Shown: positions 38,769 to 57,358, counted from the stretch's first letter. The stretch is 64,000 nucleotides of DNA from Alkalispirochaeta sp. (GCA_965242725.1 CBDESZ010000034.1:1-64000), one strand, 5' to 3'. The notes: generated from the letters alone by a model not told the origin. Translations and numbers: made by a program.

Positions 38769-39467
38769 ATGGTGCACAAGAAGACACATCTCGTCGTAGT
38801 GACAATATTTCTTGCGATTACCGGTGTCACGTTTGCCGGTGACGCTGCCCGATTTGTGAATCTCGGGTTTTCCCGGGACTCCCGGGTATTTGTATTTGGC
38901 CAATACGGCATTACCTACGAGGAAAACCTTCCATTTGCGGAAATCTTTGCCGTCGACGTACCGAGAAACGTCTTTGTCCAGGATGGAGTCTTTTCCAGGA
39001 CATTCCAGACGACGATCGGTCCCGGACAGGACGGAATCGGCGCGCTCTACAATCTCCTTCCCGATGCGGAGAAGGTTATTCAACGATATGGCGTGGATCA
39101 CCTCAACCAGGGTCGATTGATTTACCTTCTCGTGAATGGGGCGGCGGTCCGGGAACAAATTGAGTTTCGTGATTTTGAAACCGGTAACTCCTACACAATC
39201 AAACTCGTTCAGAGCCGTCGGACCAACGGAGAACACGTCCAGGCCGCTTTCTATCTCGACGTGACGACCCGCCTCGCCGACGGCTCGGTCGTCAACCATC
39301 GCGTAGGTCGTCCCGACTATTTCCGCGACGATATCGACCGCTACCGAATAAAACAGATTGTCGCCAGTCCGAATGAGCGTTCCGTCGTGGCGGTGATTGA
39401 GCGCATTCGGGAAACGGGTGAAGGAATGCGCATCCGCTACATGGTTGAAACCGTTCAGCTTCGGTAA
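38769..39467 (+). CDS. DUF2259-like secreted protein
   Basis: Signal peptide ending FA-GD; NLGFS.D..FVFGQYG and RYMVET motifs; AAAGGA RBS. Confidence 0.75.
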   Translation: MVHKKTHLVVVTIFLAITGVTFAGDAARFVNLGFSRDSRVFVFGQYGITYEENLPFAEIFAVDVPRNVFVQDGVFSRTFQTTIGPGQDGIGALYNLLPDAEKVIQRYGVDHLNQGRLIYLLVNGAAVREQIEFRDFETGNSYTIKLVQSRRTNGEHVQAAFYLDVTTRLADGSVVNHRVGRPDYFRDDIDRYRIKQIVASPNERSVVAVIERIRETGEGMRIRYMVETVQLR

Positions 39468-39472
39468 GTCGC

Positions 39473-40773
39473 TACTGTCCACAACCGTGCGGATGGCAAC
39501 GTCCTATTCCATGCAGTAACCGGGAGTTAATCGTCCGTTGATGCGATTCTCCCGCTCCGGCGTCCCCATCATCCCCATCCATACCACCCGAAGCGTGTGA
39601 TTCAATCTGCTTCGGGTGAGAAATGTTCGGCGTGTCAGCATCCTCCGGCGCACCCGCCGCAGTCGATCACTCCCGATTCCTGCCGCCTCGCCGTGACGCA
39701 GTACATTCCGCGGTGAGATTCGGTACTCCTTGTCCACGTTGTGCCACACCAGGTAGATCCACATCCGGGCGGTGCTCAGCGCCGCATTCCGGGCAAAACA
39801 GACCGTCTCCCGGTGGTGCTCGGCCAGATCCTTCCGGATCTCCCGATCAAGATAGTTCACCGCGAACAGGGGATTGGTCGCAGTTCGCGGTCGTCTCGAG
39901 GAAATCGTCATCTGGCGAATCCCGTCCGACTGCCACTGGCGAAGACACCGCTGGTAGGTCGGGTGTTCGTCACTGCGAAGAATCCGTCTCTCCGGTACCA
40001 CAGGGTGCCAGACCCGCACTGCCTCATGGATGAGTTCATGAAACGATCGGGCAAGTGCCCCGGGGTCAGGCGGTTCATGCACCTCGATGAGCGCCCGTTT
40101 CCGCCGTTGCCGCGCGGTCATCCTCCCGCTTCGCCGCAGGGTAACTGACGTCATTGCAAAGAGATATTGCGAGTCGGCTCCGGCAAGGAGGTTGAAGGAA
40201 TTCGGATGGTACTGGCTGACCCAGAAGCTCTGAAAGCCGTCAACCACGAGGTCTTCGGCGGGAACGACGTCCTCGGTAAGCGCTCCGTGGACGGCGATAC
40301 TCTGGCGGGCAAGCATCATGATCCGGTGGGTGATGGTGGTGGGAGAGACGAACAACTGCCGGGCGGCGGCACGGATGGAACAGCCGCTGACCAGCAGATT
40401 CCGCAGCCGGGAGAGGCTGATGTGCTTTTTGGTGAAGTACTCGAGGGAGAAGGTTGATGCACTGAAGTGACGTCCGCAGGTAGTACAGCGAAAGCGTTGA
40501 ACGATCCCGAGCCGCCGGGAGCGATAGGTTCCGTCACGAATCCACCATGCAGATGGGAGAGACGGGTCGGGAAGGAGGGGATGTACGGAAGCGCCGCGCC
40601 AGTGTTCGGCGCAGCGGGGATTCGGACAGAATGGAGGGTGGTCCATGGGCAGCTCCTGTACTGGGGGAGATTCCGAAACGGCAAACGGCGGTTCGGTCCC
40701 CTGACAGATACAGTGGATTTCTATCTTTCTGCTTCAGAAGTGACGATCTTCATCCGCACGGTTGTGGACAGTA
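39473..40773. mobile_element. Insertion-sequence-like element bounded by perfect 23-bp inverted repeats
   Basis: TACTGTCCACAACCGTGCGGATG (39473-39495) and its exact reverse complement (40751-40773) enclose a single transposase-like ORF. Confidence 0.82.
39504..40646 (-). CDS. IS1-like transposase (Zn ribbon, HTH, RNase H-like domain)
   Basis: CPNPRC...QRFRCTTC zinc ribbon; [31 protein letters not shown] and R.TVCFAR catalytic-region motifs. Confidence 0.75.
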
Positions 40774-40781
40774 AACAAAAC

Positions 40782-40810
40782 TTGACCTCCAGGCATTTTG
40801 CCCATAAACT
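40782..40810 (+). promoter_or_regulatory. proS promoter
   Basis: TTGACC-17-TAAACT, 13 nt before the ATG. Confidence 0.65.
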
Positions 40811-40823
40811 CCAGCAGAATATT

Positions 40824-42260
40824 ATGGCAGAAAGAATTACGCCCCGTGACACAAATTACTCCGATTGGTACATCGACATCGTACTCCAGGCACAACTTGC
40901 GGATTACAGCCCCGTAAAGGGCAGCATGGTGATCCGTCCCAGGGGATACGCCCTCTGGGAACGCATCCAACGCGGGCTGGACGACATGTTCAAGGAGACG
41001 GGACACACCAATGCCTATTTTCCCCTTCTCATACCCGAAAGCTTCCTGAAAAAGGAAGCCGAACACATTGAAGGATTCGCTCCCGAGCTTGCCGTCGTGA
41101 CCCATGGAGGCGGCGAGGAGTTGGAAGAGCCCCTGGTCATTCGACCGACTTCGGAGACGATCATCTGGAGCATGTACAAGAAGTGGATACAGTCCTACCG
41201 TGACCTGCCGTTGCTCATCAATCAATGGGCCAACGTCATGCGATGGGAAAAACGGACCCGACTCTTCCTCAGGACAACAGAGTTCCTCTGGCAGGAAGGG
41301 CACACCGCACACGAGACTGAAAAGGAAGCACGTGAAGAAACGCTGCGAATGTTGGAGGTGTATAAGACGTTCGCGGAAGACTATATGGCGCTTCCCGTCC
41401 TCACCGGCGTGAAATCGGAATCCGAAAAGTTTGCCGGTGCGGTAAGCACGTACGCCATTGAGGCGATGATGCAGGACCGCAAGGCTCTCCAGGCGGGGAC
41501 TTCCCACTTTCTCGGCCAGAATTTCGCCAAAGCTTTCGATGTTCAGTTTCAGTCCCGGGAGAGCTCTCTCGAGTATGTCTGGGCGACCAGCTGGGGAGTC
41601 TCGACCCGTCTCATCGGTGCCCTGATCATGGCCCACTCCGACGACAAGGGGCTGGTCATTCCGCCGCGCCTTGCACCGACCGAGGTTGCCCTGGTGCCGA
41701 TTTTTCGTTCCAACAACAAAGAAGATGTCCTGCCGAAAGCGCAATCGTTATACGATGAACTGCGACGGGAATTTCGTATCGAACTCGACGACGACGAAAA
41801 CAATTCACCGGGCTGGAAGTTTGCCGAATGGGAACTACGGGGCGTCCCCGTCCGCATTGAGATGGGGCCCCGGGACATTCAGAACGGCCAGGTTGTTCTG
41901 GCGAGAAGGGACACCGGCGAGAAGGAAACAGTCTCCCTTGATCGGGTACGGGAGCGCATCCGGACACTGCTTGAGGAAATTCAATCGAGCCTTTTCACCC
42001 GTGCAAAGACTTTTCGCGAGGAGAATACGGTGCGGCCGGAGTCGTACGAGGAGTTTGTCTCATTCTTCAACGAAGGCGCCGGCGGATTTGCCGTCGCGCC
42101 GTGGGACGGAGATCCCGCAACGGAAGGGCGAATCAAAGAAGAGACAAAGGCGACCATACGGGTTCTGCCCTTCGGCAATGAAGAAGAAGCAAAGGGAAAG
42201 AGCTGCATCGCCAGCGGGAAGGCCGCAAAATACATGGCCGTTTTTGCAAAGAGTTACTAA
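40824..42260 (+). CDS. proS: Proline--tRNA ligase (eukaryote/archaeal type)
   Basis: [32 protein letters not shown] and SWGVSTR motifs; C-terminal AKSY; no INS editing domain. Confidence 0.97.
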
Positions 42261-53544: not shown

Positions 53545-53700
53545 CGGTCGTATACACAATATTGGTGCACCGTCCCGTCTTCATCACGTCATCAAAAGGA
53601 CTCGGATAGTCGCGCCCGAATTACGACGATATTTGGTTATCCCTCCTACGCTTCGGTCCATTTTGCAACACGATGGTGTATACAGCCCCCGTACACCGGA
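53526..53700 (-). ncRNA. Candidate 6S-like structured RNA (strand uncertain)
   Basis: Long irregular closing stem, asymmetric central bubble and apical stem; ends GGTGTACG ... CACGACACC on the - strand. Confidence 0.4.
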
Positions 53701-55912: not shown

Positions 55913-57358
55913 TCAGGGTGCATCGGTAAGGGTGGCGTACCGCCGTCGGGCCGGCAGTTTTTCCGGGGCTCCCCGCAACTCATTGTCCGCCACTTCGCGG
56001 TACAGTGCGCGGGCACTGTGGATTCGGCGGTCCGCCTCGTATTGGCCGGCGAGCAAAAACTTCATGAAAAGCTGCAGACTCCTGTCCTGCTCGTTTTCAA
56101 CGGCCCGGAGTATTCTTCCGTCGTCACCCGCCCGGCCCGACGCCGACCGAGTGAAATAGCGCGCCATTTCATAGTATAGAGAATCCTGTGGCAGGTCACG
56201 CGCGTTTTCCTCAAGGACCTCCGCCGCCCGCCCGTCGTCGCCATTGAGTTTCCAGCTGAGTGCGGTCAACAGGATCAGTCGCGGATCGACGGGGTCCGCC
56301 GGAGCGGCGCTGCGTCGGGCGCGGGTGAAGCTTCGCGCCGCCGTGGCAAAATCTCCTGAGGCAAGGGCAAGCATCCCGTAGGGTTCCAGCGCAGGATGGA
56401 AGTCGGGACGCAGGGCAAGGGCCGACTCGTAGTCCTCGATGGCGGCGGGTACGTTTTCAATTGCCATATAGCCCCGGGCGCGGTGAACATAGGCCATGAA
56501 AATATCCGGCCGCACTTCAATGAACGAGGAAAAATCATCCACCGCTCCGGTGAAATCATTTCGTTCCAATCTGACCAGTCCGCGATCATATCGATGCCAG
56601 GGGTAGTCCGACTCGAGCTCTATGGCCGTGTCGAGGTCTTCTTCCGCCGCCGCGAGTTCATACTGCATAGCCCGAGCGCGGCTGCGGTCGGCATAGGCAA
56701 AGCTGAACTCCGGTGCGATTTCGATCGCACGGGAAAGCGCCTCTTCCGCCTGTTCAGGTTCCTCGGTTCTCAGTTTCACGTTGCCTAGACCGATGAGCGC
56801 CACGAAATGGTCGGGATTCGATTCCAGGGCGGTCGTAAATGCATCTTCCGCTGCGTTATACGCTCTCGCTTGTAGATGCATTTCACCCAACGCGGCGCGA
56901 GCGTCGCTGTGTGACGGATCAACCTCGACCACCTGCTCCAGCAGCATCCGCTCCTCCCGTTCCTCACCCCGGGCACCTGCAATGAGGGAGAGACCGAAAA
57001 GGGCGTCGCCGTTTTCCGGGTCCATCGCGAGGGCGTCGGAAAACGCGTCCTCCGCCGACGCCATGTCACCGGCTGCGAGGTAAAGATTTCCAAGGAGAAC
57101 CTGTGTTTCCGGAGAGTCCGGCGCTTCCCGCTCAGCCTCTTCATACGCGGCGATTGCTTCTTCCGGCCGGCCGAGGGAAACTGCGGCGCCGATCCGCTCG
57201 TAAAGCTCTTCCGCAGGATCGAGAACCGGTCGCTGTTGGGTTGGATCTTCCCGTTCAGGAGATTGTCCTCCGGCGCCGTCATCGGTGACGGAATCGGGCA
57301 ATGAGGCACAGCCGTACAATCCAGCGGTTATGACGGCTACGATGACAAGCGATCGCAT
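55913..57358 (-). CDS. TPR-repeat lipoprotein
   Basis: LYG-C lipobox; many consecutive TPR-like repeats. Confidence 0.85.
   Translation of the reverse strand: MRSLVIVAVITAGLYGCASLPDSVTDDGAGGQSPEREDPTQQRPVLDPAEELYERIGAAVSLGRPEEAIAAYEEAEREAPDSPETQVLLGNLYLAAGDMASAEDAFSDALAMDPENGDALFGLSLIAGARGEEREERMLLEQVVEVDPSHSDARAALGEMHLQARAYNAAEDAFTTALESNPDHFVALIGLGNVKLRTEEPEQAEEALSRAIEIAPEFSFAYADRSRARAMQYELAAAEEDLDTAIELESDYPWHRYDRGLVRLERNDFTGAVDDFSSFIEVRPDIFMAYVHRARGYMAIENVPAAIEDYESALALRPDFHPALEPYGMLALASGDFATAARSFTRARRSAAPADPVDPRLILLTALSWKLNGDDGRAAEVLEENARDLPQDSLYYEMARYFTRSASGRAGDDGRILRAVENEQDRSLQLFMKFLLAGQYEADRRIHSARALYREVADNELRGAPEKLPARRRYATLTDAP

Follow-up and report, generated by a model that had tools for sequence, protein, structure and literature searches.

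IS1 prefers AT-rich targets and its ends follow the consensus GGnnnTG, and to our knowledge a terminal dinucleotide is conserved in nearly all DDE elements. In some IS1595 groups, the third catalytic residue is reportedly N or H and not glutamate, as Siguier is said to have described in 2009 and 2015. IS1 produces 8-9-bp duplications and transposes replicatively (PMC12903888), the IS1595 groups and Merlin have a single gene, an N-terminal zinc finger and about 8-bp duplications (PMC8101967), and ISLre2/TnGBS insert 15-17 bp upstream of sigma-A promoters (PMC3942029).

The element considered here (the focal element) is an insertion upstream of proS in a 64,000-nt stretch of DNA, the whole of which is called the window. 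A sequence-only reading had described it as an unclassified IS1-like element with a TA target. The first part of this description agrees with our data, since the domain order and the alignment are of the IS1 type, yet no protein model reaches its cut-off; the second part had to be replaced by a 9-bp duplication. We consider it likely that the focal element is an active autonomous IS of an uncatalogued IS1-related group, which acts with a 9-bp stagger, transposes replicatively and moves MITEs in trans.

The insertion upstream of proS and its relatives

The source genome is denoted G000, and the other G, L and C numbers are the genomes, loci and contigs compared. The perfect 23-nt inverted repeats (IRs) with TA outermost on both sides, from which the sequence-only reading started, are present at 39473-39495 and 40751-40773, and among the 25 longest shown of 104 IR pairs in the segment 38500-42000 this pair is the longest and the only one with 100% identity. 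The described surroundings were also recovered: the DUF2259 stop codon occupies 39465-39467, leaving 5 nt before 39473, and the TTGACC of the proS promoter-like site (40782-40787) starts 8 nt past 40773. The uninterrupted 380-aa ORF was found on the minus strand at 39504-40646 with the motifs quoted for it. The boundaries 39473 and 40773 hold for the IR itself; as the ends of the element they appear to be 2 bp short on each side (Table 1).

Table 1. Positions of the features in the window, with residue numbers for the parts of the transposase
Feature	Position	Strand	Remarks
Whole insertion sequence, 1305 bp	39471-40775	-	Ends set by the 9-bp duplication register of the family (inferred)
Left end	40751-40775	-	21-nt core 40751-40771; 40772-40773, A conserved and T mostly so; dinucleotide 40774-40775 free
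Right end	39471-39495	+	Free dinucleotide 39471-39472; TA 39473-39474; 21-nt core 39475-39495
Transposase ORF, 380 aa, single frame	39504-40646	-
Non-coding leader	40647-40750	-	Ribosome-binding site before ATG, from the sequence; no evidence of structured RNA
9-bp flank, duplication position	39462-39470	+	Holds the DUF2259 stop codon; unlike the opposite flank
9-bp flank, duplication position	40776-40784	+	Fits nAAnnnTTn; includes the first three bases of the proS -35 box
proS promoter-like site, TTGACC-17 nt-TAAACT	40782-40810	+	Present upstream of proS in element-free relatives too
Left neighbour, host gene for a DUF2259 family secreted protein	38769-39467	+	Pfam PF10016, 106 bits (cut-off 25)
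Right neighbour, host gene proS, proline-tRNA ligase	40824-42260	+	TIGR00408, 600 bits (cut-off 437)
MITE, 134 bp, ends of the sister subfamily (C33-type)	53550-53683	.	Insertion relative to orthologues
Transposase, features			Zinc site C7/C12/C54/C57; HTH about 78-114; RNase H-like core 127-324; D136, D226, N264-x-x-D267
Transposase, further features			Basic insertion after strand 3 (R172, G174), conserved; conserved C-terminal region

The search for other copies, which had been proposed as a check, gave two further full copies at unrelated sites of G000, on contigs C25 and C18, with 97.8% and 97.6% identity to the focal element. Only in the focal copy is the IR perfect: at position 21, where the two further copies are different, its left end has the base of the right end. 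The codons of the three copies differ per pair by 13-18 synonymous against 5-7 non-synonymous changes. G000 also contains six full-length relatives with about 32% identity, five of them forming one sister family and one belonging to another, and one fragment.

The start of proS could be anchored in 17 of 19 loci of relatives, and both the element and the IR pair are absent in all 17; an IR pair without the ORF at the orthologous locus, which the sequence-only reading had named as the sign of an older hairpin, was thus not seen there. Since copies are found at unrelated sites and the IR pair is missing from the orthologous locus, the focal element is a real mobile element and not a pre-existing hairpin. 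Contigs of a run from a second study include the same element end joined to a different flank, as well as a piece across the left end and proS with 11 differences. The read and contig records gave no joint skipping the element and no same-species empty site, and complete congeners are too diverged for an empty-site comparison; this is why the boundary of the focal copy, and any deletion beside it, rest on the statistics of the family. No holder of the element was found among the RNA records listed. In G006 (L002), 9 nt of the empty site upstream of proS, immediately ahead of the -35 box, match the start of the IR, as a remnant or by chance.

The leader was supposed by the sequence-only reading to be possibly functional; structured RNA was sought in the leader and in the MITEs and none was found (leader z -0.81; no Rfam match at E<=1). 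Hypermutation of the leader was rejected, as its 5 differences in about 125 nt are not above the level of synonymous sites.

Relatives of the transposase are present in 53 of the 99 genomes of the order at E<=1e-40, and they are common in free-living Spirochaetia. The copy number varies from 0 to 14 per genome, with 12-14 copies in each of three complete genomes. The best 80 genome loci are all spirochaete-named except for four short contigs.

Ends, duplicated target and neighbouring genes

An IR search made without any anchor gave ends of the form N-A-(C/G)-T-(G/T), with T, A or G as the outer base, and this motif was then used as an anchor; A at position 4 and T at position 6 are therefore partly built in, being imposed by A-(C/G)-T. 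The first locus set was reduced by 26 of 80 loci, which were truncated or had no IR, and by 3 duplicates. The duplication set was made without 8 of 51 whose anchors were mis-set, without 62 of the 129 new loci and without 14 copies from two subfamilies in which the anchors were uncertain. The 121 elements became 118 (236 ends) after leaving out 3 IS110-interrupted elements, and 56 of 60 fetched MITE regions were kept, the other 4 not being pairs as cut.

At the focal copy there is no 8-9-bp flanking direct repeat, in agreement with the sequence-only reading; the best repeat within the 22-nt flanks is 3 nt long. Several other copies have a direct repeat that is set back from the core, and in these the left gap, the repeat and the right gap always add up to 17. 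A comparison of the two flanks over outward positions 5-13 gave 9/9 identity for 8 of 121 elements against 0.02 expected from mismatched pairs, and runs of at least 8 matching bases occur at register 17 in 9 elements, at register 16 in one and at the other 14 registers in none. The base profile of the 242 flanks is palindromic about position 9 (register 17), its consensus being nAAnnnTTn. The independent set of 56 MITEs includes 9 with at least 8/9 matches (0.13 expected) and 13 with at least 7/9 (0.62 expected), and ten element copies from G025, once re-anchored, added one match of 8/9 and another of 7/9. The family duplicates 9 bp of its target, and not TA.

The sequence-only reading had proposed a TA-duplicating family with 21-bp IRs comparable to IS630/Tc1-mariner. 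Such a family would agree with the TA that stands beside the core at all six ends of the three G000 copies, with the TA/TA flanks of 61 of the 118 elements and with the top Foldseek row, which is Mos1 at E 8.6e-5 but with a TM of 0.22 and an rmsd of 18. We regard it as extremely improbable, since 57 of the 118 elements have no 2-bp repeat there, the sister family of G000 has TT outward at 9 of 10 ends, the true duplication lies 4 nt further out, and the tips, with the TA as IR positions 3-4, travel with the element. When gaps of 0-6 and lengths of 3-14 were scanned, only the 9-bp window with 4/4 gaps and its sub-windows were enriched, and TA duplication and the other short registers were rejected; a variable duplication length produced by partial re-targeting was rejected too, because 4/4 repeats of 4-7 bp are not enriched. 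This case shows that a true duplication can hide behind an apparent TA.

Since the 9-bp register has gaps of 4/4, the element should extend 4 nt past the core, and 2 nt past the TA, on each side. In the same register, the two ends of E. coli IS1A read GG-TG-A-TG and GG-TA-A-TG, and the end of the focal element reads nn-TA-C-TG. The terminal dinucleotide of the family is GG at 13 of 236 ends and all 16 pairs are seen; the two outermost bases vary freely. TG is found at positions 6-7 of 176 of 236 ends, with T fixed by the anchor. The tips are inherited in young subfamilies (identical tip pairs in L249/L252 and in L251/L253; TACC/TACA in 5 MITEs) and yet change more quickly than the interior: for the three G000 copies, the six ends have five different tip pairs; occasional insertions in register 16 (L421) would feed target bases into the tip.

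We suppose that, as in IS1, the zinc/HTH region binds the core of roughly 21 bp in each end. The fixed register and the free dinucleotide suggest that the 3' ends are nicked at a fixed distance of 4 nt outside the core and that the last two bases hardly matter for it. The ends would then be joined to the AT-rich nAAnnnTTn target with a 9-bp stagger, to which the duplications and the palindromic flank profile testify.

Two side observations concern the ends. In G408, one common 930-bp flank replaces the IR tip at L232, L239 and L240, and the MITE end L429 and L433 show the same junction; at L098, such an end adjoins a 350-aa ORF which by its motifs resembles an IS110-family recombinase, apparently an element that targets the IRs of the focal family. 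Moreover, all three IR types of the genus (39476-39483 in the window, and the sister ends) hold an 8-mer similar to the presumed DnaA-box consensus, which is probably a coincidence because the IRs of other genera are without it.

About 90% of the elements, the focal copy included, have no duplication. The flanks of such copies keep the target consensus on both sides, from which it follows that the enzyme joined both ends, though in many cases to separate targets. Flank swapping or mis-assembly was rejected as the main cause, as cross-copy pairing gave 1 pair at register 17 among 1050 same-genome end pairs and none in three complete genomes. The perfect 9-mer shared by the C3-left and C30-right ends of the sister family (G000 C3 129712 and C30 117538) also counts in favour of the 9-bp duplication and would be due to a rearrangement between copies or an assembly swap. 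Carry-over of a donor 9-mer was rejected as well, as no identical 9-mers are found between copies besides three IS110-interrupted ends.

The ends often lie close to the signals of neighbouring genes. By the gene calls made in this analysis, 10 of the 12 G000 ends that face the 3' end of a gene are within 5 nt of its stop codon, and for the 6 that face a 5' end, outward position 11 has TTGAC in 4 cases. For other genomes, a stop codon was found within -8 to +5 nt at 50 of 168 ends, compared to 6% of random intergenic points (a null taken over 0-5 nt with the G000 calls). Copies with a duplication are flush with stops in 3 of 16 cases and those without it in 46 of 144, i.e. not clearly less. At sister-family ends on C3, C17, C20 and C30 of G000, the stop codon of the neighbour overlaps the element tip with gaps of -3 to -5, and across the family the commonest stop-to-end gaps are -1 (18 ends) and -5 (9 ends).

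Of the 236 ends, 12 have a TTGAC beginning at outward position 11, and no more than 2 have it at any other of 34 positions; 19 are within one mismatch of TTGACA at position 11, and outward TTG at positions 11-13 occurs in 46 ends versus 18 for its mirror image. Full promoter-like sites with the -35 box at position 11 are present at 11 of 236 ends, compared with 0-5 at positions 5-10 and 12-14, and L061 and L227 have such a site at both ends. These counts would suit true promoter targeting, in which RNA polymerase or the -35 box guides insertion to a fixed distance upstream, as for ISLre2/TnGBS. We consider this explanation quite unlikely, since it fits only about 5% of the ends, the TT is a part of the symmetric target consensus, which appears on either side of the elements (111 of 236 ends), TTGAC at position 11 is found at just 2 of 112 MITE ends, and stop codons are the commoner neighbour.

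Flush ends do not by themselves prove deletion, because the consensus itself favours TAA and TTG and because copies with and without a duplication show no clear difference in this respect. Duplications are lost by simple decay as well, as is shown by many near-matches (7/9 or 8/9, with scattered mismatches) among the elements and the MITEs. For known elements, it is described that the duplications of IS6 are often lost by intramolecular (cis) replicative events (PMC7986276) and that adjacent deletions of IS150 grow stepwise (PMC11708052). By analogy, the missing duplications and the flush ends seem best explained by adjacent deletion of the IS1/IS6 type plus selection. Transposition would most likely be replicative, as in IS1 and IS6, with cis events deleting the neighbouring DNA while one end gains a new target. 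Repeated cis events and selection would leave most copies without a duplication and resting on the nearest indispensable feature; for the focal copy, this may be the DUF2259 stop codon at one end and the proS -35 box at the other.

MITEs and lone cores

The sequence-only reading had suggested a repeat family with the same ends and a search for IR-only MITEs. In G000, 17 pairs measuring 133-136 bp have sister-family ends, and two others of 156-157 bp have the ends of the focal element. The MITE in the window, which is one of the 17, sits between two convergent genes, in a segment of 370 nt which is 183-293 nt long in 8 of 8 orthologues. The interiors of the MITEs are nearly unrelated (mean identity 0.39 versus 0.32 shuffled) and symmetric; counted from either end, there is an A at 32 and, at 45-54, an AT-rich motif. 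By the strict pattern, MITE-type pairs occur in 7 of 16 congeners and in 0 of 82 other genomes, and of 20 such pairs none could be placed near a G000 pair. Sites of one IR type number 125 in G408 and 74 in G494, and those of another number 93 in G027; for both types, the other genomes tested have at most 2; the MITEs and sites of each genome match that genome's own element. The matching ends and the same 9-bp register show that the enzyme also acts in trans on the 129-157-bp MITEs. The family likely accounts for part of the MITE load of spirochaete genomes, a load noted in PMC11602168.

Some MITEs have unusual positions or sizes. A 136-bp MITE (L299:587-722; G000 C17 32486-32621) lies in frame in a variable linker of an unbroken 1326-aa gene, presumably purL, and another (G006 L298) is found in a heparinase-like gene. 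The 44-bp elements L430 and L431 of G408 consist of two IRs alone and are perfect palindromes, one of them with an 8/9 duplication; they may be MITEs that have collapsed, or the smallest unit able to move.

A 129-bp MITE was traced through its interior alone in ten copies. In these, non-consensus bases occupy 3 of 300 core cells (11 of 360 once three variable positions are counted) versus 110 of 890 cells of the interior, and no copy retains a perfect duplication. The end cores are thus about 12-fold more conserved than the interiors: they have stayed intact in situ as the remainder of the MITE decayed.

Similar cores also occur singly, a "lone core" being one with no partner within 1.5 kb. 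Those of the focal-element type number 15, of which 9 lie in predicted genes, and those of the sister types 56, of which 35 lie in genes; the reversed-genome controls gave 0-1 for either. High-scoring coding sites number 8 and 18, compared to 0-2 and 0-1 under synonymous codon shuffles, and a few of the observed ones are MITE ends. The strict pattern is found 22 times in G000, 9, 7, 6 and 2 times in four relatives, once in each of three genomes and never in 91 of 99. The synonymous shuffles and the lack of matches in these 91 genomes led us to reject a chance coding origin for the high-scoring lone cores; some of the weaker lone sites may be due to chance, and the examples are few.

Two G000 lone sites are colinear with an aligned orthologue, and in a sugar-kinase gene of G009 a perfect core replaces eight codons of a variable loop without any indel. 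Three other alignable lone sites lie in stretches with small gaps, and orthologues of several more were sought and not found. A weaker lone site on C5 may be due to chance, as it falls on a V-x-N-P-A motif, where one orthologue matches about 15/21. Two lone sites of a capsule-type locus are common to G000 and G009, at the same positions and with 64-69% flanking identity. No strand bias was found among the lone cores of either type (5/15 and 31/56). Their outward position 1 is C in 8 of 15 and T in 6 of 15, compared with T in 10 of 12 paired ends; since the tip is mostly missing, they resemble sites of preferred binding rather than copies of an end.

A 4.2-kb stretch of the capsule-type cluster (G000 C3 91192-95371) has four lone cores, all in the same strand, two or three of them common to G009, and G006 has sister-type sites nearby. 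In the window, a lone sister-type core of 19.2 bits (56174-56192) is located in a predicted 462-aa gene and may be due to chance at that score.

The in-place conservation of the cores and the lone cores in genes are left unexplained by the model of a replicative IS with mobile MITEs. We tentatively suggest, as a possibility that we hold to be rather doubtful, that the family leaves a putative 19-21-bp binding core fixed in place genome-wide, through rewriting by the enzyme or through host selection. Old MITEs would then keep their cores as their duplications and interiors decay, and lone cores, which follow the IR of the resident element of each lineage, would take the place of host sequence in frame and with no indel where a gene tolerates it. 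In the first case, the enzyme would convert look-alike DNA into its own site by end-directed conversion; in the second, core sites would be retained as decoys or as a co-opted binding network. In the literature searched, neither process is described for an IS. If true, such fixation would be a new way for a transposon to alter host coding sequence without insertion.

The same data bear on domestication, also raised by the sequence-only reading, in which the transposase would be a host DNA-binding protein for genome-wide sites and the IR-flanked copies would be secondary. The cores kept in old MITEs, the excess of lone cores in host genes above the controls and the two positions shared with G009 would be expected from such a protein. 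We nevertheless hold it to be very unlikely, because the copies, three of them in G000, occupy unrelated and species-specific sites and vary in number between genomes, the orthologous site is empty in relatives, the sites of each genome follow the IR of its own element, MITE positions are unshared with G000 in 20 of 20 cases, and no IR-less or N-terminal-only homologue was found in G000.

The transposase and its place among known families

A sequence search of the PDB gave no homologue of the transposase. In the predicted structure (pLDDT 90), the core 127-324 matches retroviral integrases, TnsB, IstA and MuA with Z 11-13 (RNase H-like integrase fold, Z 13.3 and an rmsd of 3.6 over 153 residues), and the Mos1 core has Z about 9. 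D136 lies in strand 1 and D226 closes strand 4, which are the usual DDE places; of 225 full-length relatives, 222 and 224 keep them, respectively. Each of the four cysteines of the zinc site is present in 222-225 of the 225, and HTH matches are located at 81-114. The basic insertion (R172, G174) and the long C-terminal tail (H302, N303, R340, W356), both pointed out by the sequence-only reading, are conserved family-wide among these relatives.

The third catalytic position is non-canonical, as had been suspected, with a carboxylate one helical turn further on. In the catalytic helix 261-273, position 264 is N in 222 relatives, D in 2, K in 1 and E in none, and D267 is kept in 219 of 225 (E in 4); E269 is kept in 176 and R271 in 223. 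The profile alignment with IS1 InsAB' (193 columns, E 0.0018, hhalign probability 15%) keeps the order of the zinc site, the HTH, the second Asp and the R-x-x-L-x4-R-x-T/S-x-x-F motif, and so agrees with the IS1-like domain order claimed earlier; its IS1 side is of little diversity, the first Asp is unaligned and an 11-column gap stands just before the key helix. R271 pairs with IS1 R198, and an ungapped count back places N264 on the catalytic E191 and D267 on N194, a register which we infer, as the alignment program opened its gap there. On the sequences, E-x-x-N of IS1 would have become N-x-x-D in the family.

We suppose that catalysis is carried out by D136 and D226 together with a third position in N264-x-x-D267. 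We lean towards D267 as the supplier of the missing carboxylate; that N264 itself acts as the third catalytic residue is conceivable and less probable, and the use of another acid is improbable. Two departures from the general DDE rule are thus combined in the family, an acid apparently moved by one helical turn and a free terminal dinucleotide, and since both occur in a compact single-gene enzyme, the link between the catalytic helix and tip recognition is directly testable.

No Pfam or NCBIfam model reaches its cut-off for the focal transposase, and the sub-cut-off matches are weak and confined to residues 49-119, besides one at E 0.9. NF050000 is below cut-off for it and is matched weakly by 18 of 56 family members, and the IS1 model NF033558 is matched weakly by 50 of the 56 and exceeds its cut-off in 0 of the 99 genomes of the order. 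DDE_Tnp_IS1595 is not one of the 15 Pfam families to which the 56 members have matches at E<=0.01, and DDE_Tnp_IS240 has no Pfam match in them. In the Atlas, unnamed Spirochaetota clusters score 0.98 and the nearest named cluster is DDE_Tnp_IS1 at 0.93; DDE_Tnp_IS240 is among the nearest named clusters of the core at 0.88, which is a lead only. The HMM search, proposed earlier as a check, thus revealed no described family with these properties. The main texts of the open literature that were searched contain no description of the family. With a profile of the family, 510 clusters were reached at E<=1e-30 and, at the looser E<=0.001, 2254; it is a widespread family missed by current domain libraries, which have no model of its catalytic domain.

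The family may alternatively belong to an ISfinder group whose ends are recorded differently, the IS1 subgroup ISMhu11 or the ISNCY group ISLbi1. ISMhu11 has variable direct repeats of 0-10 bp, which count for membership, and ISLbi1 has 5-bp repeats, which count against it. JGI labels some relatives "IS1 family transposase", and ISLbi1 is a spirochaete (Leptospira) group according to a table in PMC13046281. We judge such membership unlikely, as the IS1 model gives 24.3 bits against a cut-off of 100 and within residues 49-119 only, an even phylum sample gave matches in 7 of 401 genomes (four candidates scored per genome), all in the same class, and the plasmid and phage records gave no matching relative.

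With IS630/Tc1-mariner, the focal family has only the RNase H fold in common, and it differs in the lack of TA duplication, in domain order and in motifs. IS6/IS26 resemble it by the DDE_Tnp_IS240 Atlas score (a lead only) and by the frequent loss of duplications, whereas the focal element and its protein are longer, the protein has a zinc finger, the repeat is of 9 bp and not 8 bp, the ends are different and a Pfam match is lacking. ISLre2/TnGBS and ISKra4 (p-MULT) are likewise enriched for -35 boxes at a set distance from their ends; however, theirs are Mutator-type enzymes and the distance is 13-17 bp in a large share of sites (PMC3942029), while in the focal family about 5% of the ends are concerned and the -35 box overlaps the duplicated 9-mer. 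The IS1595 groups (ISPna2, IS1595, ISSod11) and Merlin are similar in their single transposase gene and N-terminal zinc finger, and the focal family differs from IS1595 by the lack of DDE_Tnp_IS1595 matches in its 56 members, by ends without a GG start and by the 9-bp duplication.

The closest system is IS1, represented by E. coli IS1A and InsAB'. A zinc finger and HTH followed by the RNase H core stand in the same order, TG is at IR positions 6-7 and TA at positions 3-4 of one IS1A end, and the duplication is of the 8-9-bp class (9 bp at the family level and absent at the focal copy). In contrast to IS1, there is one 380-aa frame with no insA/insB frameshift, open in the focal copy and without an internal stop in all but one of the matches listed; the elements are 1.2-1.45 kb long versus 768 bp; N-x-x-D stands for E-x-x-N; terminal GG is not conserved; and the protein has the conserved basic insertion and about 90 extra C-terminal residues and falls far below the curated cut-off. 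Our verdict, for which ISMhu11 and ISLbi1 were compared by description only, is a new group of the IS1 kind: three defining features of IS1, namely Glu as the third residue, terminal GG and a model score above the cut-off, are absent from it, and by analogy it appears to work like IS1 in its domain order, 9-bp stagger, end register and probable replicative mode.
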